This document shows, one piece after another, positions 11,527 through 63,951 of a DNA stretch of 64,000 bases. Source of the stretch: Octopus vulgaris (Eukaryota); NCBI GenBank assembly GCA_951406725.2, contig OX597833.1:21018001-21082000 (forward strand), read 5' to 3'. Below the pieces are notes generated by a model. That model searched no databases. It saw nothing but the letters and a program-made list of their open reading frames with translations, and was not told where the DNA came from. Made by a program: the position numbers and the translations under genes. Within the stretch, counting starts at the first letter, position 1, and every line of letters starts with the position of its first letter.

Positions 11527-12578
11527 TCATCATCATCATCATCGTTTAACGTCCGTTTTCCGTGCTAGCACGGGTTGGATGGTTCGACCGGGGTCTGGGG
11601 AGCCAGGGGCTGCCCCAGGCTCCAGTCTGATCTGGCAGTGTTTCTACAGCTGGATGCCCTTCCTAACGCCAACCACTCCGCGAGTGTAGTGGGTGCTTTT
11701 TACGTGCCACCTGCACAGGTGCCAGAGGGTTCTGGCATCGGCCACGATCAGTTGGTGCTTTTTTTTTTTTTTTTTTTTTGTGCTACCGGCGCAGAAGCCA
11801 GTCAAGGCGGTGCTGGCATCGGTCACGTTCGGATGGTGCTTTTTATGTGCCACCGGCACAGAAGCCATTCGAGGCGGGGTTGGCATCGGTCACGTTCGGA
11901 TGGTGCTTTTTATGTGCCACCGGCACAGAAGCCAGTGGAGGCTGCACTGGCAACGGCCACGTTCGGATGGTGCTTTTAATGTGTCACCGGCACAGGTATC
12001 ACAACTACTGTTTCCATTGATATTTGGTTCGATATTCATGTGCCACCGGCACAGAAGCCATTCGAGGCGGGGTTGGCATAGGTCACGTTCGGATGGTGCT
12101 TTTTATGTGCCACCGGCACAGAAGCCAGTGGAGGCTGCACTGGCAACGGCCACGTTCGGATGGTGCTTTTTATGTGTCACCGGCACAGGTATCACAACTA
12201 CTGTTTCCATTGATATTTGGCTCGATGTTCAGGTGCCACCGGCACAGAAGCCATTCGAGGTGGGGTAGGCATCGGTCACGTTCGGATGGTGCTTTTTATG
12301 TGCCACCGGCACAGAAGCCAGTGGAGGCTGCACTGGCAACGGCCACGTTCGGATGGTGCTTTTTATGTGTCACCGGCACAGGTATCACAACTACTGTTTC
12401 CATTGATATTTGGTTCGATGTTCATGTGCCACCGGCACAGGAGCCATTCGAGGCGGGGTTGGCTTCGGTCACGTTCAGATGGAGCTTTTTATGTGCTACC
12501 GGCACAGAAGCCAGTGGAGGCTGCACTGGCGACAGCCACGATCAGATGGTGCTTTCTATGTGTCACCGGCACAGGTAT
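11527..12578 (-). mobile_element. RTE-tail-related repeat with an internal 193-bp higher-order tandem array
   Basis: About 4 copies of a 193-bp unit built from three ~65-bp GTGCCACCGGCACAG subunits. Confidence 0.85.
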
Positions 12579-12584
12579 CTAGAA

Positions 12585-17169: not shown

Positions 17170-17218
<49 letters not shown>

Positions 17219-17225
<7 letters not shown>

Positions 17226-17581
17226 GAAAGAATTATCGCTATGGACTCCGAGTGGGCAGTCATCTAAGAGTTTTTGTTCATCTTGATGCTGACATAAATT
17301 CCTTGTTTCTCCTGATGAGAAGGCAGCATAATGCACCCCTTATTCCTTCGAAATTAGGAATATGCAGCCTTCGAAACATATGTCGAGAATAAAGGAATTT
17401 TGTTAAATCGTCGTTCAACTCCATTCTTTCATTTATTTGTATTAAAAAACACATAAATTTCCACACAAAAGCACGTGATCTCTGTCCTTGGCATGTAGCT
17501 TCAACCGTGTTTTTCTGATGTGAATTTGCTACCAGGTATCGGTTAACCGAATTATCCATACTAGGATAATTCATTCAACTA

Positions 17582-17584
<3 letters not shown>
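17219..17584 (+). mobile_element. ORF-less ~365-bp unit between (TA)n tracts carrying a hammerhead ribozyme (solo Penelope pLTR or retrozyme monomer)
   Basis: Flanked by (TA)n on both sides; contains a canonical HHR. Confidence 0.65.
17292..17403 (+). ncRNA. type I hammerhead ribozyme, canonical core, extended stem I
   Basis: Stem I AAATTCCTT-GT-TTCTC / GAGAA-TA-AAGGAATTT; CTGATGA at 17312-17318; stem II GAAGGC/GCCTTC plus GCATA/TATGC; GAAA at 17373-17376; palindromic ACATATGT stem III; GUC site, cleavage after 17384. Confidence 0.88.
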
Positions 17585-17629
<45 letters not shown>

Positions 17630-18460: not shown

Positions 18461-20657
18461 CATCATCATCATCATCATCATCATCGTTTAACGTCCGCTT
18501 TCCGCGCTAGCACGGGTTGGACGGTTTGACCGGGTCTGGGAAGCCAGGGGCCGCACCAGGCTCCAGTCTGAATCTGGCAGAGTTTCTACGGCTGGATGCC
18601 CTTCCTAACGCCAACCACTCCGTGAGTGGATTGGGTGCTTTTTACGTGCCACCTGCACAGGGGCCGGAGGGTCCGGCATCGTCACGATCGGTTCGAGCAT
18701 TTTAACGTGTCAGCGGCACGGGGGCAACGAGGTCCGGGGTACTTTGGGGATCCAGGGTACTTTGGGGATCCGGGGTACTTAGAATGAGTAGGGGGTATGT
18801 GGAATTGCTGCAGAAAGCAGCCCGGGTCTTTGTAGTCACAGCATTTATCGTCACTGAGTAACGTAATTAGGTAGAGGAAAGAAATACAGATATTCTAGAG
18901 TTGAGTTGGGGAGGGGAGGTCCAGTTGAGGCGGGTAATATAGGAGAGCAACCAGTGGGGAAGGTTGGGGTAAGGAGGAACGATGGCAGGAAGGGTTGGTG
19001 TAGGTTCCTAAGAAATAAAGACATTCGTTATCGTCACTGAGTAACGTTATTAGGTAGAGGAAAGAATACAGATATTCTAGAGTTGAGTTGGGGAGGGGGG
19101 TCCAGTTGAGGTGGGTAATATAGGGGAGCAACCAGTGGGGAAGGTTGGGGTAAGGAGGAACGATGGCAGGAAGGGTTGGTGTAGGTTCCTAAGAAATAAA
19201 AACGTAGGATATTACGAGGCGGGAGGGTGCTAAAGGGGATAGTCGGAATGAGGCAGTGTCAGGAGGAAGCGTAAGATCGGTGGGCAGTTGATGAGCTATG
19301 GCGCTAGCAGCTTGTCTTTTCACAGTGAAAGCATATGAGGAGAAGGGGTAGTGGGGGGAGGAGGAGGGAGTAGGGCGTACCCGGTGTAGATGAGTAAGGC
19401 GTATCCGGTGTAGATGGTGAGGACAGGGTATACTGGTATTGGTGGTGGGGGGTGAGGAACAGTGTTCACCGGTATTGGTGGTGTTGGCGGTGAGAACAGT
19501 GTTCACCGGTATTGGTGGTGGGGGTGAGAACAGTGTTCATCGGTATTGGTGGTGGGGGTGGGGGGCGGGCGCACCGCCAATGGCTGAAAGATGGGAAGAG
19601 ATGGGATTACGGCTTGAGGTAGCCTAGCCTAAGGTTAAATTTTGTAGAGAGAGAGATAGAAAGATAAATCAAGTTATGGCGAAGGCTTGAAAGTAGCCTA
19701 AAAAGGTTAAATTTTCGTAACAATGTATGAATAAACGTAGTAACAACGAATAAAATAGTAAGATAAATTTTTAAGAACTTGCTGCGGACATCGATCGGGA
19801 GTTGAAATTGAAGAAGAAAGTAAGTTGAATTGGGAATTTAAATTGTAGAATCGTAATGGTAAGAGGAGGAAAAGACCGCCAATGGCTGAAAGATGGGAAG
19901 AGATGGGATTACGGCTTGAGGTAGCCTAGCCTAAGGTTAAATTTTGTAGAGAGAGAGATAGAAAGATAAATCAAGTTATGGCGAAGGCTTGAAAGTAGCC
20001 TAAAAGGTTAAATTTTCGTAACAATGTATGAATAAACGTAGTAACAACGAATAAAATAGTAAGATAAATTTTTAAGAACTTGCTGTGGACATCGATCGGG
20101 AGTTGAAATTGAAGAAGAAAGTAAGTTGAATTGGGAATTTAAATTGTAGAATCGTAATGGTAAGAGGAGGAAAAAGACCGCCAATGGCTGAAAGATGGGA
20201 AGAGATGGGATTACGGCTTGAGGTAGCCTAGCCTAAGGTTAAATTTTGTAGAGAGAGAGATAGAAAGATAAATCAAGTTATGGCGAAGGCTTGAAAGTAG
20301 CCTAAAAAGGTTAAATTTTCGTAACAATGTATGAATAAACGTAGTAACAACGAATAAAATAGTAAGATAAATTTTTAAGAACTTGCTGCGGACATCGATC
20401 GGGAGTTGAAATTGAAGAAGAAAGTAAGTTGAATTGGGAATTTAAATTGTAGAATCGTAATGGTAAGAGGAGGAAAAGACCGCCAATGGCTGAAAGATGG
20501 GAAGAGATGGGATTACGGCTTGAGGTAGCCTAGCCTAAGGTTAAATTTTGTAGAGAGAGAGATAGAAAGATAAATCAAGTTATGGCGAAGGCTTGAAAGT
20601 AGCCTAAAAAGGTTAAATTTTCGTAACAATGTATGAATAAACGTAGTAACAACGAAT
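18461..20657 (-). mobile_element. composite non-autonomous element: RTE-type 3' tail plus tandem-repeat-rich 5' region
   Basis: (GAT)n RTE tail at 18461-18720, 2 x ~182-bp repeat at 18845-19200 and 3.6 x 302-bp repeat at 19573-20657; bounded by TA tracts. Confidence 0.55.
19573..20657. repeat. 302-bp tandem repeat, 3.6 near-identical copies
   Basis: Units start with ACCGCCAATGGCTGAAAG at 19573, 19875, 20177 and 20479. Confidence 0.95.
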
Positions 20658-21206
20658 ATATATATATATATACACCCACACACGTACATACATGTGTATG
20701 TCTGTACATGTATGCATGTGATTGCATCTCCTTATTGCTTGCTAGCTGTAAACAAGTGTCACTGTCACACAAGCATTCATGTTATACATTCCTGACCATT
20801 GGGGAAATATTACCTTGTTTAGAGACCTGTGAGGGTTTAGCAACAGGAAGGGCAATCTGGCTGTGGAAAATTCACTCTGAGAAACTCCGTCCAACCCATA
20901 CAAGCATGAAAAAATGGACATTAAAACAACGACGATAATGATAATGAAGATGATGATGATGATGACGAAGATGATGACAGCAAAAGAGTGAATGTTTTGC
21001 ATAACCATGCGATATAACTTAACTGCTTTGTGTGTAATTATGTAATACAACTTATATCAAATCTGTTTCTGTAGTTGATGTAAATTATGTAAATAAACAT
21101 AGGATGAGTTGTATAAATGACCTAACACAAATTTGTCTAATTTTGTCTTTGACAACTACTTGTTTATTTCAGACACCACCTGCAACAAATATACATATAT
21201 ACACAG

Positions 21207-23684: not shown

Positions 23685-25157
23685 TATTCGTTTAACATCC
23701 GCTTTCCATGCTAGCATGGGTTGGACAGTTCAACTGGGGTCTGTGAAGCCTGAAGGCTGCACCAGGCCAGTCAGATCTGGCAGTGTTTCTACAGCTGGAT
23801 GCCCTTCCTAACGCCAACCACTCCGAGAGTGTAGTGGGTGATTTTATGTGCCACCGACACAGGTGCCAGACGAGGCTGGTGAACGGCCATGCTTGGATGG
23901 TGTTTTTTACGTGCCACCAGCACGTAGGCCAGTCAATGCGGTACTGGCTATGGCCACGTTCGGATGGTTTTCGTATGTGCCACCACAAAACTACAAATTC
24001 CATTAATGTTCATCGAGTTTGCTTTTGATTTTGTCCATTTTCACTTGCCTCAACAGGTCTTCACAAGTAGAGTTATGTGTCCCAAGAAGGAAGGTATGCA
24101 TAGGTGCACTGACTATGTTCCAGGTAGGGGCCATGGGTTATGGCCTCACTTGTCCAGCCGGGTCTTCTCACGCACAGCATACTTCCAAAGGTCTCGGTCT
24201 CTGGTCATTTCCTCGGTGAGACCTAAAGAGCGAAGGTCGTTCTTCACCACCTCGTCCCAGGTTTTCCTGGGTCTGCCTCTTCCACAGGTTCCCTCAACCG
24301 CCAGGGTGTGGCACTTTTTCACACAACTACCTTCATCCATTCTTACTACGTGTCCATACCAGCGTAGACGCCTCTCTTGCACACCACATCTGATGCTTCT
24401 TAGGTCCAACTTTTCTCTCAAGGCACTTACACTCTGTCTGGTATGAACACTGACATTACACATCCAACGGAGCATACTGGCTTCATTTCTTGCAAGCTTA
24501 CGCATATCCTCAGCAGTCACGGCCCTTGTTTCACTGCCATGTAGCATGGCTGTTCGCACACATGCGTCATACAGTCTGCCTTTTACGCTGAGCGAGAGGC
24601 CTTTTGTCACCAGCAGGGGTAAGAGCTCTCTGAACTTTGCCCAGGCTATTCTTACTCTAGCAGTTACACTTTCGGCACACCCACCCTCGCTACTGACTTG
24701 GTCACCTAGGTAACAGAAACTATCAACTATTTTAAGTTTTTCTCCCTGGAATGTGGCGGAAGATGGTCTCTGCGCACTTTCAGTGTTTATTGCACCAGAG
24801 CATCTGCCACATACAAAAACTATTTTCCTAGTTAGCCTTCCTTTGACATTGCTGCACCTCTTATGTGTCCATAGCTTACACTTCGTGCATCTTATAGAGT
24901 TCCTACCTACGCCTTTTCTACAGATCGAGCAGGGCCATCTACCTGATGGCGTTTGAAATTTGTCTACCTTCCTACTTATTAGGACTTTGGTTTTAGCTAG
25001 ATTGACTCTAAGGCCCTTCGATTCTAATCCTTGCTTCCACACCTGAAACTTCTCCTCGAGTTCCGATAGTGATTCAGCAATTAGAGCAAGGTCATCAGCA
25101 TAGAGGAGCTCCCAGGGGCATCCTGTCTTGAATTCCTCCGTTATTGCCTGGAGGACT

Positions 25158-25160
<3 letters not shown>
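23685..25160 (-). mobile_element. RTE-clade LINE, 5'-truncated, open RT C-terminal half plus 3' UTR
   Basis: Uninterrupted frame 24146-25160: GCPWELLYADDLAL, DSFCYLGD, RRLRWYGHVVRM, GRGRPRKTW; 3' UTR ends in the tail shared with the short RTE-tail repeats. Confidence 0.92.
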
Positions 25161-25188
<28 letters not shown>

Positions 25189-25811
25189 CACGTATACACG
25201 TATGTATGTATGTGTGTGTATATGTCTTTGTGCCTGTGTTTGTTGTCCCATCACTGCTTGACAACTGGTGTTAGGGTGTTTATGTCCCCATAACTTAGCA
25301 ATTTTGCAAAAAGACCGATAGAATAGTCTTAAAAAATAAGTACTGGGGTTGACTTATTTGACTAAAACCCCCTCAAGGCTGTGCTCCAGCATGGCTACTG
25401 TCAGATGACTGAAATGAGTAAAAGAATAAAACAGAATAAACTGCATCAAAAAATTGTCAGAATATTCTGTGGATTGCAGAAGTATAACTAATTCATTGCA
25501 CATAAAGTTTAACAACAAAATCTTATAATGAACTCCCAAGGGTCATGTGGACCCCAGTTGAGAACTACTGATATAGGTTATAAATTAGTTCAGATAGTTG
25601 GTCTTTCCCCATTGTTGTTCAACAGTATTGCAGACACAGTAACCTAACCCCTCTGCTGTGCTTGAGCTGTTTCCAGAAGCAAATGCCTCAACTCAAACAC
25701 TCTTATCATTTCTCCACTCATGCATATACCATGAAGGAAAGACAAGTCAATACATCTACAGCATCAATGAAGACACAGGAGTTGCCAAATATTGGTTAAG
25801 TATAACCACAT

Positions 25812-39169: not shown

Positions 39170-40430
39170 CATTGGACAGTGAACTGCCAGAATCGTTGGC
39201 ACGCCGAACAAACTGCTTAGCGACGTTTCGTCCGTCTTTATGTTCAGAGTTAAAGTTTTGCCGAGGTCGATTTTGCATTTCACCCTTTCCGAGGTCCATA
39301 AAATAAATACCAGTTGAGTACTGGGGTCGATGTGATTTACTAACCCGCCCTCCTCCCATAAAATTTTAGGCTTTGTGTCTATAGTGGAAACGATTATGGC
39401 TTCATTTTGAGTCAACAAGATGGCAAAATCGTTAGCACGCCGCATAAAATGCTTAGCGACATTTCATCCGCCTATTTGTTCTGAGTTCAAAATTTGCCGA
39501 GGTCGACTTTGCCTTTCATCCTTTTGGGGTCGATAAAATAAATACCAATTAAATACTGGCGTCGATGTAATTGACTAACCCCTCCCCTCAAAAACTGCTG
39601 GTCTTGTGCCAAAATTTGAAAGCATTATTACAAATTCTCATAGGGCGGCGAGCTGGCGGAAACGTTAGCACACCGGACGAAATGCTTAGCGGTATTTCGT
39701 CTGCCGCTACGTTCTGAGTTCAAATTCCGCTGAGGCCGACTTTGCCTTTCATCCTTTCGGAGTCGTTTAAATAAGTACCAGTTACGCACTTGGGTCGATG
39801 TAATCGACTTAATCCGTTTGTCTGTCCTTGTTTGTCCCCTCTGTGTTTAGCCCCTTGTGGACAATAAAGAAATAGGTATTTCGTCTGCCGTTACGTTCGG
39901 AGTTCAAATTCCGTCGAGGTCGACTTTGCCTTTCATCTTTTCGGGGTCGATAAATTAGGTACCAGTTGCGCACTTGGGTCGATGTAATTGACTTAATCTC
40001 TTTGTCTGTCCTTGTTTGTCCCCTCTGTGTTTAGCCCCTTGTGGGTAGTAAAGAAATAGGTATTTCGTCTGCCGTTACGTTCTGAGTTCAAATTCCGTCG
40101 AGGTCGACTTTGCCTTTCATCTTTTCGGGGTCGATAAATTAGGTACCAGTTGCGCACTTGGGTCGATGTAATCGACTTAATCTCTTTGTCTGTCCTTGTT
40201 TATCCCCTCTGTGTTTAGCCCCTTGCGGACAATAAAGAAATAAGAATCGTTAGTACGCCCGAAAACATGCTTAGCGCCATTACTTTCAGCTTCACGTTTT
40301 GAGTTCAAATTCCGCCGAAGTTGACTACTTTTCATGCCTTCAAAATCGATATAATAAGTATCAGTTGAACACTGGGATCGATGTAATCGACTTAACCCTC
40401 CCCTAAAATTTCAGGCTTTGTGCCTATAGT
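39170..40430 (+). mobile_element. cluster of family B SINEs including a trimer (39643-40245) nested in another copy
   Basis: Head-less ~190-bp bodies repeated through AAGAAATAGGTATTTCGTC junctions. Confidence 0.85.
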
Positions 40431-43891: not shown

Positions 43892-45960
43892 AAAAATGAA
43901 AAAACTACAGAAGGCTTAAATGTTAAAAAATATATATTTGCGTCAATATGTCTGAAGAATATTAAAAAATTTTTTGAAGAATATTAAAAAATTTTTTTTT
44001 CCTCTTATAATGACATAATTTAGAAGAAATTCTCCTAAACCCTTCTGAAACCCTTCCTTAAACATATCGATAGCCATATCAGAGATGACTTGGATATATT
44101 AAACCACCTTCCAAAAAAAGCCAAGGAAGAAACAATCCTGGTTTCATTTGATGTCAGTTAACTTATATACCAGTATACCTCATAATTATGGACTAGAGGC
44201 AATACAGTTCTGGCTGGACCAATTTCCGGAAGAAATACCAAAAGGATCAGTAAAGAATTCATTACTAAATCAATTGAATTCATCCTACACAATAACCACT
44301 TCATGTTTGACAATACATTTTACCGTCAAAAATCCGGAATTGCTATGGGTACAAGGGCAGCACCAGTCATTGCGAACCTAACAATGGGCTACATGGAAAT
44401 AATCATTTACCAGGAATCTTTATCAATCTTTGGAAACCCCATTTCTCAATACATAAAAGAGAATTGGAAACGATTCTTAGACGATTGTTTTATACTCTGG
44501 AATGAAAACACAGATAAACTCCTAAAATTTAAAAACCTATTGAACAGCATAAACCCAAATATACAGTTCACAATGGAATACAACCAAAAGGAGCTCCCGT
44601 TCTTGGATATACTAATTTAAAAAATTAACCTTAAAATAGAAACAGACATTTTTTACAAAGCCACAGACGCCAAACAATACCTTCTTTTTAATTCATGCCA
44701 CCCAAGACACACTAAAACAAACATCCCCTTCAACCTTGCACAGACGCCAAACAATACCTTCTTTTTAATTCATGCCACCCAAGACACACTAAAACAAACA
44801 TCCCCTTCAACCTTGCAAGAAGGATATGCACAATAGTGTCAGAACAAAATACCAGGAACTTTAGACTGCAAGAACTCAAAAACACCCTAATTGACAGACA
44901 TTACCCAGCTCAACTCATAGAGGATGGGATCAGACGTGCAACAGAAATCAACATAGAAACTTTAAGAAAAGTTCAACACAACAACACACCTTCCCCGAAA
45001 ATACTACCTTACATATCTACATACAACCCCAGAAACAAAGAAGCCTTCACCATCATCACCCAGAATTTACCAATACTTCATAAGGACCCCAAATTAAAGG
45101 AAATTCTAAACATACACCAAATCATTAAAAGCTATAAACAAACTAAATCACTTAAAAAGATTCTCACAAAGGCAAAATTGTCTTCTGATACTACGGATGC
45201 AAAAGTAAAAAAATGTGGTAGATCGAACTGTGCAACATGTCCAAACCTGCTAGAAGGATCAGAATTCCTCTTTAAAGAGGGACAGAAATTCAAGATCAAA
45301 TCTAACTTTACTTTTGCCTCTGAAAACATAATTTATGTCATAAAATGCTCGGGCTGCCACCAAGACTACGTGGGATCCACGGGACTATCACTCAGACGTA
45401 GATGCACACTGCATCGACAACAGATTGCATTCCCAGAATACAGAATGATACCTTTTAGTGAGCACATTGAGAAATGCGCAAAGCAACTACTACCACAATT
45501 TTTAATCTTTCCATTTTACCAATGTGCTATCGGATCATCAACACAAATTAGACTAAACAAGGAAACATTCTTCATTGAAAAGTACAAGCCCAGACTTAAC
45601 CATCCCAACATACTGATACAGAGAAATTCACACCAAGGGAAAGGAAAATATTTTTAAGCGATTATCTCCCTTACACCGGAAGAAATCACTCATTACCTCC
45701 CCTTATTTAGAACTCTTTTGAACATAAACATAACGATAACCCTGTTCAACATAAACATAACGTCGCAAGAAATTTGAAAAGCTAAACGCGAAACCGGTCT
45801 TTCTTCTAAATTATGTCATTATAAGAGGAAAAAAAAAATTTTTAATATTCTTCAAAAAATTTTTTAATATTCTTCAGACATATTGACGCAAATATATATT
45901 TTTTAACATTTAAGCCTTCTGTAGTTTTTTCACTTTTTACTATTTTCTATATATTCAACC
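43886..45960 (+). mobile_element. Penelope-like element, 5'-truncated (RT plus GIY-YIG pseudogene), with an inverted pLTR copy at the 5' end
   Basis: LVSFD..NLYTSIP, GIAMGTRAAP, WKRFLDDCF, LPFLD, IYVIKCSGCHQDYVGST; frameshifts and a 77-bp internal duplication at ~44662-44817; 43886-44029 is the reverse complement of 45800-~45945. Confidence 0.93.
45767..45805 (+). ncRNA. minimal hammerhead ribozyme with U3-A8 covariant core
   Basis: AAGAAA-(T)-TTGAAAA-GC-TAAAC-GC-GAAA-CCGG-TC-TTTCTT; palindromic loop III; predicted cleavage after 45799. Confidence 0.65.
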
Positions 45961-48169: not shown

Positions 48170-48960
48170 AAGGCGGCGAGCTGGCAGAACCGTTAGCACG
48201 CCGGGCGAAATGCGTAACGGTATTTCGTCCGTCTTTACGTTCTGAGTTCAAATTCCGCCGAGGTCGACTTTGCCTTTCATCCTTTCGGGGTCGATTAAAT
48301 AAGTACCATTTACGCACTGGGGTCAATGCAATCGACTTAATCTCTTTGTCCGTCCTTGTTTGTCCCCTTTGTGTAGCCCCTTGTGGGCAGTAAATAAATA
48401 GATATTTCGCCCATCTCTACGTTCTGAGTTCAAATTCCGCCGAGGTCGACTTTGCCTTTCATCTTTTCGAGGTCGATTAAATAAGTACCAGTTACGCACT
48501 GGGGTCGATATAATCGACTTAATCCGTTTGTCTGTCCTTATTTGTCCTCTCTGTGTTTAGCCCCTTGTGGGTAGTAAAGAAATGGGTAGTAAAGAAATAG
48601 GTATTTCGTCTACCGTTACGTTCTGAGTTCAAATTCCGCCGAGGTCGACTTTGCTTTCGATCCTTTCGGGGTCGATAAATTAAGTACATGTTACGCACTG
48701 GGGTCGATGTCTGTCCTTGTTTGTCCCCTCTATGTTTAGCCCCTTGTGGGCAATAAAGAAATAAGGATCGTTGGCAAGCCGAACAAAATGCTTAGCGCCA
48801 TTTCGTCTGTCTTTATGTTCTGAGTTCAAATTCCGTCGAGGTCAACCTTTATCTTTCATACTTTCGGGGTCGATAAAATAAGTAACAGTTGAATAATGAG
48901 GTCAACGATATCGACTTAACCTTTCCCTAGAATTGCTGGCCTTGTGGTAAAATTTGAAGC
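48170..48960 (+). mobile_element. family B SINE trimer plus an adjacent copy
   Basis: One head followed by three ~190-bp bodies. Confidence 0.85.
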
Positions 48961-57549: not shown

Positions 57550-57961
57550 TTTTCCTATTTCTGTATTGCCCACAAGGGACTAAACACAGAGGGGATAAAC
57601 AAGGACAGAGAGATTAAGTCGATTACATCGACCCCAGTGCGTAACTGGTACTTAATTTATCGACCCCGAAAGGATGAAAGGCAAAGTCGACCTCGGCGGA
57701 ATTTGAACTCAGAACGCAAAGACAGACGAAATACCTATTTCTTTACTACCCACAAGGGGCTAAACACAGAGAGGACAAACAAGGATAGACAAACGGATTA
57801 AGTCAATTACATCGACCCCAGTGCGTAACTGGTACTTAATTTATCGACCCCGAAAGGAGGAAAGGCAAAATGGACCTCGGCGGAATTTGAACTCAGAGCG
57901 TAGAGACAGACGAAATACCGCTAAGCATTTCACCCGGCATGCTAACGTTTCTGCCAGCTCG
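57550..57961 (-). mobile_element. family B SINE dimer
   Basis: Reverse complement of the family B consensus. Confidence 0.85.
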
Positions 57962-60743: not shown

Positions 60744-60824
<81 letters not shown>

Positions 60825-60831
<7 letters not shown>

Positions 60832-61955
60832 TCTCAGAATGAGATTGAAACATAATCGCTCGATAATATAAATATAGAAGCCATCTTATCATGGCTAACC
60901 ACATTGGGGAGGGGGTGTTACTGTAGCTTTATAGCCCCGAGAGATCTTCGTCTCTAGCTGGCTTTAGACACAATATCAGTGTCCTTGGAGTATTTGCAAA
61001 GGGAGGCCATCCCTTCCTCGCAAGCCTGAGTGATACGCTCGAACTAGTTTCGGGTTTGTTGTCCCTCGTCAACGGGCGGTAACAACCAGGTCACGATGAA
61101 AGTGAAGGCCTCTTTGCAAACATATATAAGTTTTTCTAATGGCGTCTGCCACTGATGTCGAAAAACGAACAGTAAGCATAATTAAATCTCAGAATGAGAT
61201 TGAAACAGTAATCGCTCGAAAATGTAAAGTATAGAAGCCATCTTATCATGGCTAACCACATTGGGGAGGGGGTGTTACTGTAGCTTTATAGCCACGAGAG
61301 ATCTTCGTCTCTAGCTGGCTTTAGACACAATATCATGTCCTTGGAGTATTTGCAAAGGGAGGCCATCCCTTCCTCGCAAGCCTGAGTGATACGCTCGAAC
61401 TAGTTTCCGGATTGTTGTCCTTCGTCAACGGGCGGTAACCACCAGGTCGCGATGAAAGTGAAGGCCTCTTTGCAAACATATATAAGTTTTTCTAATGGCG
61501 TCTGCCACTGATGTCGAAAAACGAACAGGCGCTATAAAGCTACAGTAACACCCCCTCCCCAATGTGGTTAGCCATGATAAGATGGCTTCTATACTTTACA
61601 TTTTCGAGCGATTACTGTTTCAATCTCATTCTGAGATTTAATTATGCTTACTGTTCGTTTTTCGACATCAGTGGCAGACGCCATTAGAAAAACTTATATA
61701 TGTTTGCAAAGAGGCCTTCACTTTCATCGCGACCTGGTGGTTACCGCCCGTTGACGAGGGACAACAAACCCGAAACTAGTTCGAGCGTATCACTCAGGCT
61801 TGCGAGGAAGGGATGGCCTCCCTTTGCAAATACTCCAAGGACACTGATATTGTGTCTAAAGCCAGCTAGAGACGAAGATCTCTTGGGGCTATAAAGCTAC
61901 AGTAACACCCCCTCCCCAATGTGGTTAGCCATGATAAGATGGCTTCTATACTTTA
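60825..61955. mobile_element. ORF-less ~355-bp unit array (2 direct plus 1.2 inverted copies) with HHR motifs; pLTR/retrozyme-like
   Basis: Copies at 60825-61179 and 61180-61528, inverted tract at 61531-61955; (TA)n on both flanks. Confidence 0.8.
61745..61787 (+). ncRNA. minimal hammerhead ribozyme-like motif (UUGACGA core)
   Basis: CGCCCG-TTGACGA-GGG-ACAACAAA-CCC-GAAA-CTAG-TT-CGAGCG; minus-strand copies at ~61037-61078 and ~61392-61434. Confidence 0.65.
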
Positions 61956-62296: not shown

Positions 62297-63951
62297 CAGA
62301 AATACCCGACGTTGCTCGCGATTTGTATATATGGTACAAGTTAAGTTGAAACGTGTGATATGGAGAAGTGTACAATTGACGACAAAGCATTTGTGGAGTA
62401 AATGAAGGGCTCGTTCGATTAAGTGACATGTCTTGCGTCTGTTTGGAAGATTCCAGGCCCTAACCTTGTCGTGGAAAAGTGAATGGAGGATATGTGATTC
62501 TTGAACGCACCAAAAAGCTGTCAGTGGATATGATTTCTTTTGCGGCTGTCGGCGCTGCCGCTACAAAGCTGAAAAATCATGAGATATAGGAACTTCATCT
62601 ATGCGATAAATTAAGCCTGAGGGCGCGCTCAACAGTACCACATGAGAGAAATCTACATGAAAGATATGACGTGGTAAGGCGGGGGATTGACAAAGAAGCG
62701 CTTGAAAACAACACAGTCTTGCGATATTTCGGTTTGGAATCAATAGTCGTGGCTCAATGATGCACTGCTTCGCGTAAACAGCATGTGACCATTGTGAGGA
62801 CAACTCAGCTACCAAACGAAAACAATTCTGCATGCAGCATTGGGGTACGCGAGGTCACATTAAGGAAGGATGAAAGTCAAAGTCGACCTCGGCGGAATTT
62901 GAACTCAGAACGTAACGGCAGACGAAATACCGTTAGACATTTCGCCCGGCGTGCTAACGCGTCTGCCAGCTCGCCGCCTTCGATGCATGGAATATTGAAG
63001 TTTCCATTTATCGAGCAACACACACAGTCTCTAACAAGAGTGGTTGGGTCACGTAATGTTGGATTGCTGACGTGGTTGGGGATCAATAATCGTGGCTCAA
63101 CTGTGCACTCCGCGTAAACAGCGTGCGACCACTGTGAGGGTTACTCAGCTCCTGAACGAAAACAATTCTGCATGCAGCATCGGGGTACGCGAGGTCACAT
63201 TAAGGACACGGTCTCTAACAAGAGTGGTTGGGTTACGTAATGTTGGATTGCTGACGTGGTTGGGGATCAATAGTCGTGGCTCAACTGTGCACTCCGCGTA
63301 AACAGCGTGCGACCACTGTGAGGGTTACTCAGCTCCTGAACGAAAACAATTCTGCATGCAGCGACCGGGGACGCATGGTCACATTAAGGACATGGTCTCT
63401 AACTAACGTCGTTGGGTCTTAGACACAATAAATTAGTAGGTTAATGTACATGTGATATTTTAGTTTGTAATCAATAGCTGAAGAATATTTGCATGGACTT
63501 TGTCTATGCTTAGACGGAAGACTTTGATACTGAAGCTAAAAGAAAATAGTTGAATAGTTGCTCAGGATTTAATATATTTTAGCATAATTTTCATAATAAA
63601 CAAAGTGCATTCCAAACGGTTTTTATTCCAACAAATTTCTACCTATGGTACTACGGGTACAGGCAATTATTGCTACCAATTAGACAAGGCAGTTTGAAGT
63701 CTACATCAGTTCTTCCATTTAATACAACCTACATATATTGTTTCAGTAGTTGAATTTGACAGTTTGAACAGAAGCAATGTGTGGACCATGCGAGTAGTCG
63801 TACGTATCCCAGGAAAGAGGGTATTCTGCCCCAAGAGGCCCCATTACTCATTATGTGAAAATTTTCAAGAGTCTAAAACCATCTCTGGAACGTAAGGAAT
63901 GCATGTTCCCAACTTGGAGAAAATCAGTTGCGAACTTCAGAAGTTCTGCGG

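Follow-up and report, generated by a model that had tools for sequence, protein, structure and literature searches.

A predicted hammerhead ribozyme in a short pseudo-LTR copy of a Hydra-type Penelope-like element of Octopus vulgaris

How does a ribozyme-bearing unit without an open reading frame (ORF) come to lie inside a (TA)n microsatellite, and to what kind of element does it belong? The question is raised by a window of 64,000 nucleotides of Octopus vulgaris DNA (assembly GCA_951406725.2, contig OX597833.1, positions 21,018,001 to 21,082,000), which is numbered here from its first letter and in which an ORF-less unit of 366 bp lies between (TA)n tracts. The original prediction described this unit as either a solo pseudo-LTR (pLTR) or a non-LTR retrozyme, a term reportedly found in papers of the de la Pena laboratory. 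The first description is essentially right; the second was not borne out. Judged from its sequence, the unit is not a retrozyme but a short copy, devoid of an ORF, of the pLTR of a Penelope-like element (PLE) of ~3.5 kb.

The hammerhead is real as a sequence and fold motif. It occupies 17291-17404 on the forward strand and, in the window sequence, its fold and an alignment of 19 copies, shows the CUGANGA / GAAA / NUH core and three helices, with helix I open, of a type I ribozyme. All catalytic nucleotides are intact, as had been claimed: CUGAUGA (C3-A9) at 17312-17318, GAAA at 17373-17376 and GUC at 17382-17384, with cleavage predicted from the sequence after C17384. Stem I, formed by 17291-17311 and 17385-17404 and recognized by sequence, fold and covariation, had been credited with at least 14 pairs and a 2x2 loop; it comprises 18 pairs, arranged as 5 bp (17307-11/17385-89), the 2x2 loop (UG/UA), 9 bp, a bulge and 4 bp, with predicted pairing probabilities of 0.83-1.0 in the window copy. 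The size of the internal loop varies among subfamilies. The extended stem II domain spans 54 nt (17319-17372), and its paired strands, 17319-30/17361-72, form the proposed 6+5 bp well in the predicted monomer; the whole is larger and more elaborate than the usual Penelope hammerheads, as the original prediction held. The further TTCCT/AGGAA hairpin at its apex is predicted in the window copy (0.97-0.99) but is not conserved (4-14 of 19 copies per pair); an alternative AUUC/GAAU apical hairpin, not predicted in the window copy, fits 14-19 of 19 copies. The region folds at a z-score of -5.8, and none of 200 shuffles was as good.

Stem III is the 8-nt palindrome at 17376-17383, within the segment 17373-17384 that also holds GAAA and GUC. 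It was correctly taken to be of the dimer type. Fold prediction gives it a pairing probability of 0.01-0.02 in the monomer, so that 'fully canonical' was an overstatement, and the self-duplex of the palindrome is predicted to be worth -7.0 kcal/mol; the stem is therefore predicted to form only in a dimer. Rfam did not recognize the hammerhead at either of two thresholds, the looser being E<=10. The 54-nt stem II domain is the probable reason, and similar elements may go undetected in standard scans as well. The bare core motif occurs in the window at chance level (5 matches against 4.16 expected), and on inspection the other four matches were without evident hammerhead stems. The window also holds seven short tandem arrays with units of 182-356 bp (11845-12579, 19573-20658, 39691-40242, 48221-48708, 57554-57919, 60823-61528 and 63022-63418), in which the hammerhead core pattern was not found.

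Homologues were expected to conserve the core and stems if the motif is genuine, and they do. The aligned set was chosen by hand: to the window copy were added 18 of 52 distinct matches, which gave 19 representatives in all, with sister subfamilies included. C3, G5, G8, A9, G10.1, G12-A15.1, C15.2, G16.2 and U16.1 are invariant in 19/19 at a mean column identity of 71%, while U4 is kept in 17/19 and A6 in 18/19. In the named structure the paired cells amount to 89%, and double-sided changes are seen in 11 of 32 pairs; none of 500 shuffles reached this paired fraction or the covariation score, 17 of 500 reached 11 pairs, and slid controls of the same structure were paired at 34-53%, figures that lend support rather than a probability and lean toward the window copy, since the copies are related and the tested structure was taken from that copy. 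The stem II domain, with 93.7% of cells paired and double-sided changes in 5 of 10 tested pairs, was the only stem recovered by RNAalifold from the 19 copies, and stems I and III were for that reason tested as the structure named from the window copy. The two central bases of stem III, unpairable within a monomer, are complementary in all 19 copies (UA in 11, UG in 6 and CG in 2, the CG cases being one lineage), as would be expected if a dimer helix were selected. Both halves of the core are kept in 52 of 58 core-spanning arms, a local sample biased to young copies, and the core is conserved across elements whose ORFs are only 64-65% identical. A sister family with an ORF of 778 aa (L168, L183-L185), in which some ORFs are intact, has C for U4 (CCGAAGA) in several copies. 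At G000:C20:23328000-23357700 (L053-L055) about eight copies of 3.2-3.7 kb of a diverged sister element are found, some of them inverted; there A6 of the hammerhead is changed to G, the palindrome is broken, the ORFs are frameshifted and the proteins show a strong drift that looks like A-to-G change.

The unit itself has a composite build. Between the (TA)n target microsatellite of the left flank (17176-17217) and that of the right flank (17584-17623), both delimited by sequence and repeat scan, a 16-nt arm on the reverse strand (17218-17233), the exact reverse complement of 17424-17439, is joined to a 352-nt sense arm (17232-17583), with 2 nt of microhomology shared. The ORF-less unit in (TA)n had thus been seen correctly, but its first 16 nt are an inverted copy of an internal segment. 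The sense arm corresponds to the pLTR and 5' leader of a full-length element, from a putative transcription start (the A of TCA+1TT at 17232) to an outer end at 17583, and is 94% identical over its 352 nt to the arm of the closest full-length copy (L057), whose ORF is in pieces. A first look at the genome (2.8 Gb) gave ~3,120 candidates, the best 40 at 95-100% identity, and 20 of the 39 top copies have longer inverted arms in the same arrangement. The 51-mer that follows the cut site has 312 exact matches genome-wide, against 0 for the control.

Several of these copies extend upstream into a remnant of a GIY-YIG domain, and one carries the N-terminus of a reverse transcriptase (RT), by which the family could be traced to full-length elements. 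One such element (L060) is ordered as inverted arm, pLTR, 55 nt, ATG, ORF, 3'UTR, pLTR and (TA)n; its unit is 3,559 nt long and its ORF has ~880 codons with one stop, full-length copies having generally ~880-900 codons. Same-strand tandems of the element have a unit of ~3.2-3.7 kb. No uninterrupted ORF was seen among the examined copies of the window's own subfamily; sister subfamilies have many, of 778-908 codons, some of them 96-99% identical to each other. A shorter derivative (L014/L032, G000:C1:209502364-209502890) has ~155 nt of the ORF N-terminus fused to the pLTR unit, with ~3 kb deleted internally.

Insertion anatomy was examined in the first 100 of the 312 matches to the 51-mer, which represent 84 insertions on five contigs; the search pattern is neutral with respect to arrangement. 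Outer ends fall at two fixed sites, a short end (S) at +52-58 and a long end (L) at +199 nt past the cut site. Projected on the window copy, S is an AU-rich stretch at 17436-17442, a putative first start of reverse transcription; L is position 17583, a putative second start; and the tail between them, of ~141 nt, is 17443-17583. L lies 55 nt before the ATG in full-length copies, and AU-rich letters follow it. Among the 84 insertions, 54 combined S with L, 1 combined L with a very short S arm, 2 had S at both ends and none had L at both; in 20 one arm was found, and 7 had another or an unresolved partner. One S and one L end were accordingly present in 55 of the 57 classifiable two-armed insertions (binomial p 1e-14). 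Two sister families, represented by 24 anchors each, showed S+L in 11/11 and 13/13 two-armed insertions with tails of ~150-160 nt, so that the three families together have the S+L combination in 79 of 81 classifiable cases. Paired arms are head-to-head, that is, inverted; junctions mostly share 1-4 nt (29/60). In 37 of the 54 S+L pairs, about two thirds, the arms overlap, and this requires two templates or strand displacement. Of the L ends, 16/64 retain the first letters of the junction, consistent with internal priming by short TA pairing. The window copy is an extreme case of such a two-armed insertion, with an S arm of 16 nt and an L arm of 352 nt.

The 5' boundary of the arms points to the nature of the template. 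Arm 5' ends pile up at TCA+1TT, position 17232 of the window: 35 of 144 lie within 12 nt and 16 on three bases, only 7 of 144 begin in the 99 nt upstream, and 22 of 144 run upstream into 3'UTR or ORF. Counted over the 138 S and L arms, 34 starts fall at the pile-up against 6.6 expected. The window copy lacks two motifs of longer copies, TATAA at -28 and TGACGTCA at -41. In a second family 8 of 36 arms pile up at CA+1GTTT, where the TATA-like box is not conserved, and in the third family tested no 5' pile-up was found. The pile-up at 17232 is likely run-off at a transcription start. Starts at 150-156, the cut site with three bases to either side, account for at most one of the 138 arms, from which it follows that the templates of reverse transcription were likely uncut at the ribozyme. 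The contigs of four runs guessed to be RNA, which can show presence only, cover the pLTR far deeper than the ORF and, among the joints listed, contain no back-joint at the cut site.

The reading that best accommodates these observations, with a probability of roughly 0.8, is that the unit is a short pLTR copy placed in (TA)n by double nicking, its two cDNAs having started from fixed internal sites, S and L, on a transcript that was not cut. The endonuclease (EN) of the element would nick both target strands in (TA)n; one nicked strand would prime at L and its cDNA would run off the 5' end of the RNA at the start site, giving the 352-nt arm, whereas the other would prime at S and stop after ~16 nt, and the two cDNAs would be joined through the 2-nt microhomology. 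As a monomer the ribozyme is expected to have almost no activity; cleavage is predicted for a stem III dimer or with the help of protein. It would likely serve the full element by processing tandem transcripts, possibly yielding circles of unit length (~3.5 kb); any role at the window locus would be conjectural. Because the cut precedes both S and L, a unit RNA that had been cut twice would have to be circularised to give full-length copies. Tandem arrays with periods of 3.2-3.7 kb are explained equally well by read-through of tandems.

The same anatomy could arise with a different cause of the pile-up at 17232: a small hairpin (GCTC..GAGC-like) that stalls the RT or provokes template switching there. 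This alternative is unlikely, but it is the strongest of those considered. In two families such a hairpin motif follows the pile-up by ~13-25 nt, the third family is without a pile-up, the TATA box is not conserved, and repeated template switches occur at the place in several junctions. On the other hand, arms end 5' of the hairpin and not at its 3' foot, the density of starts drops ~7-fold upstream, as it would at the end of a template, and in two families the peak sits on an initiator-like CA.

Rather less credible is the proposal that units of ~350 nt form a non-autonomous family of their own. Their templates, copied in trans, would be short ORF-less RNAs driven by the 3' pLTR promoter of truncated copies and extending into (UA)n, by which they would pair with the nicked (TA)n. 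The proposal would account for the common 5' boundary of the units, and it draws on the failure of a prediction, in that letters of the pLTR-ORF junction, expected to be enriched in start-site arms, were rare there (1/18 against 16/50 in the other L arms), so that the template may be a short ORF-less transcript rather than the full mRNA. The lack of an intact ORF in the window subfamily, with many in its sisters, points in the same direction, as does the deeper pLTR coverage in the guessed-RNA contigs, which copy number also explains. Yet the arms that reach 3'UTR or ORF have the same sequence and the same two ends, and form a continuum with the short units; units that begin at +1 are without the upstream promoter-like motifs; and a single junction template could give both types of L end by priming in different registers.

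A retrozyme origin, in which tandem hammerhead repeats of ~350 nt elsewhere in the genome give rise to circular RNA that is reverse-transcribed into monomers, has in its favour the size of the unit, its dimer-type stem III and the available description of retrozymes as derivatives of PLE pLTRs whose monomers are dispersed (bioRxiv 10.64898/2026.07.22.740005), but it is largely refuted, and highly improbable, because the proposed search for tandem copies found no head-to-tail short repeats in 114 loci and no end-to-start junction genome-wide (one exact pattern), close pairs among the first 100 of the 312 matches are on opposite strands, and the ends are the fixed S and L sites with inverted arms that are typical of PLE insertion. 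The circle of ~350 nt envisaged by the original prediction is likewise unsupported: paired copies are inverted and the unit belongs to an ORF-bearing element.

The protein of the clan to which the unit belongs places it among EN-bearing PLEs. A single ORF encodes a telomerase-like RT and a GIY-YIG domain, and the pLTRs derived from partial tandems, the inverted 5'-truncated arm and the one-ended tail are those of the group. Aligned ORFs have the motifs RIRW, (S)DKT and GLYRDD, a C-terminal IYQC..YIG and CxxC..E..N..CxH (for CxxC..CxH, columns 901-970 were tested). Pfam and PDB sequence searches with clan ORFs found neither RT nor GIY-YIG; an AlphaFold model of one sister ORF (pLDDT 73) had telomerase RTs as its top six PDB matches, at E 3e-9 to 3e-8. 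The only protein match with a species name was one from Argonauta hians, at 35%. With the Hydra clade the clan shares the C-terminal EN, the RWK-type motif and DKT (as RIRWL and SDKT, with L for the K of RWK), the absence of CCHH, with CxxC and CxH flanking conserved E and N, and a hammerhead in the pLTR of elements inserted in (TA)n. Immediately after the anchored end, 75 of 84 insertions have a strict (TA)4, and most of the others are TA-rich. The clan departs from Hydra in its length, generally <3 kb in that clade and 3,559 nt in L060 (the 778-aa sister family has ~2.9 kb), and in the CxCX5C linker before the EN, which is present in 64 of 66 outside homologues (out of 100 homologues, those that showed the EN motif) and in 0 of 25 EN-bearing clan ORF pieces. 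Its place is taken by a disordered low-complexity insert rich in N, S and G and by a conserved SExNPNRIxF segment. By its motifs, the clan would be Hydra-derived but not a strict member of Hydra; Naiad was rejected on account of the C-terminal EN, and Neptune for want of a CX2-5CxxC linker and CCHH. The available part of PMC8557442 hypothesises that the linker mediates the bias for microsatellites and notes Chlamys as an exception. The clan is a second exception, from within the elements with a C-terminal EN.

Other remnants in these sequences are of separate origin. On the reverse strand of L031, 5360-5950 is a Hydra-type EN remnant with a CxCX5C linker; the genome therefore contains families of both kinds, with the linker and without it. 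A Neptune-like PLE fragment lies on the forward strand of the window at 44500-45660, with an RT thumb, a C-x4-C-x2-C linker and GIY-YIG (IYVIKC..YVG); it has 313 open codons and a 77-bp tandem duplication at 44662-44817, and aligns weakly with the clan profile. A LINE fragment is probably represented by 24146-25270 on the reverse strand, where an ORF of 374 aa partly matches RVT_1 and includes a PHD-like finger.

Among known systems the closest is the Hydra clade of Craig et al. (2021; PMC8557442), which includes Hydra-1_Obim from Octopus bimaculoides. As available from that source, its elements share with the clan a single ORF with RT and C-terminal GIY-YIG, the RW(K) and DKT motifs, CxxC/CxH flanking E and N without CCHH, (TA)n insertion, a pLTR hammerhead of type I whose short stem III is palindromic, and an inverted 5'-truncated arm. 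The clan differs in having the low-complexity insert where Hydra-1_Obim has the linker, in its size (~3.5 kb and an ORF of 780-910 aa, against <3 kb and ~700 aa), in the stem II domain (54 nt, where the Hydra entries of File S2 have no more than 24 nt) and in the tail (140-160 nt against 30-40 nt). Hydra-1_Obim, 2,507 bp long and with the linker and an unlike hammerhead sequence, is a different family. Long stem II domains have precedents in the same source, where PLE-X1_sMoe has ~52 nt and the 'half cores' of Naiad are 35-50 nt apart.

A second comparison is offered by PAc, a Poseidon element of Anolis, for which the available text of Frangieh et al. (2024; PMC11167929) describes two internal start sites and an uncut RNA template in vitro. 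There, too, two internal sites bound a tail downstream of the hammerhead and the target is AT-rich. The sites of PAc are inside the ORF (the first 111-118 nt in) and are used alike on both strands, unlike those of the clan, which are both upstream of the ATG, 141 nt apart and used one per end; the both-strand use in PAc counts against a strict one-of-each model. The present hammerhead resembles those described for PLEs by Cervera and de la Pena (2014; PMC4209133), which also occur in pLTRs, are widespread in the form of truncated single copies and have a palindromic helix III of the dimer type, but its helices I (18 bp) and II are much longer. The same source gives PLE hammerheads low, dimer-dependent activity and proposes circles as templates for more-than-unit copies. 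Metazoan non-LTR retrozymes share with the unit the lack of an ORF, ~350 nt, a type I hammerhead and PLE pLTR ancestry, and their defining trait, in the accessible part of bioRxiv 10.64898/2026.07.22.740005, is at least two head-to-tail units each with a hammerhead; copies of the window family differ in being head-to-head inversions continuous with ORF-bearing elements, and tandem organisation was not found in them.

Clan insertions also recall a pattern outside the PLEs. In L1 twin priming both target strands prime, and the resulting 5' inversion is joined by microhomology. A microhomology-joined inversion and, on the favoured reading, priming of both strands are common to the two, but the putative priming sites of the clan have fixed internal positions, and its arms frequently overlap. 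The literature search found no paper that applies L1 twin priming to PLEs.

Hammerheads in PLE pLTRs and Hydra elements in octopus are already published (available parts of PMC8557442 and PMC4209133), and recently active Penelope families of Octopus vulgaris are in print (PMC13282606, as far as accessible). The hammerhead itself is ordinary as a ribozyme find, and the value of the locus lies in the element family. No published account of the clan, its long tail, its one-of-each end rule or its linker loss was found in the search; Repbase, Dfam, bioRxiv supplements and most subscription journals were outside it, and the repeat databases and supplements may hold them. The available text of PMC8557442 and PMC11167929 states as open the origin of PLE inverted arms and tails, the targeting of microsatellites and the purpose of the hammerhead, and on all three the clan gives genomic counts. 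Its tail is about four times the published length, it targets (TA)n without the cysteine linker hypothesised to mediate targeting, and its hammerhead core is conserved although the templates are likely uncut at the ribozyme. A broader and more tentative view, doubtful as it stands, is that a linker-less Hydra-derived clan finds (TA)n without the zinc-finger linker and that its integration requires asymmetric double priming: one RT complex would use S for one target strand and L, 140-160 nt away in the 5' leader, for the other. The cDNAs would run off a capped start, and a dimer-activated hammerhead with a long stem II would convert tandem transcripts into ~3.5-kb circles, the source of the more-than-unit copies. 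The full replication cycle can be tested in vitro with young sister families, whose ORFs are uninterrupted. With its two fixed insertion ends and its missing zinc-finger linker, the clan would be a useful test case for the copying of Penelope-like elements.
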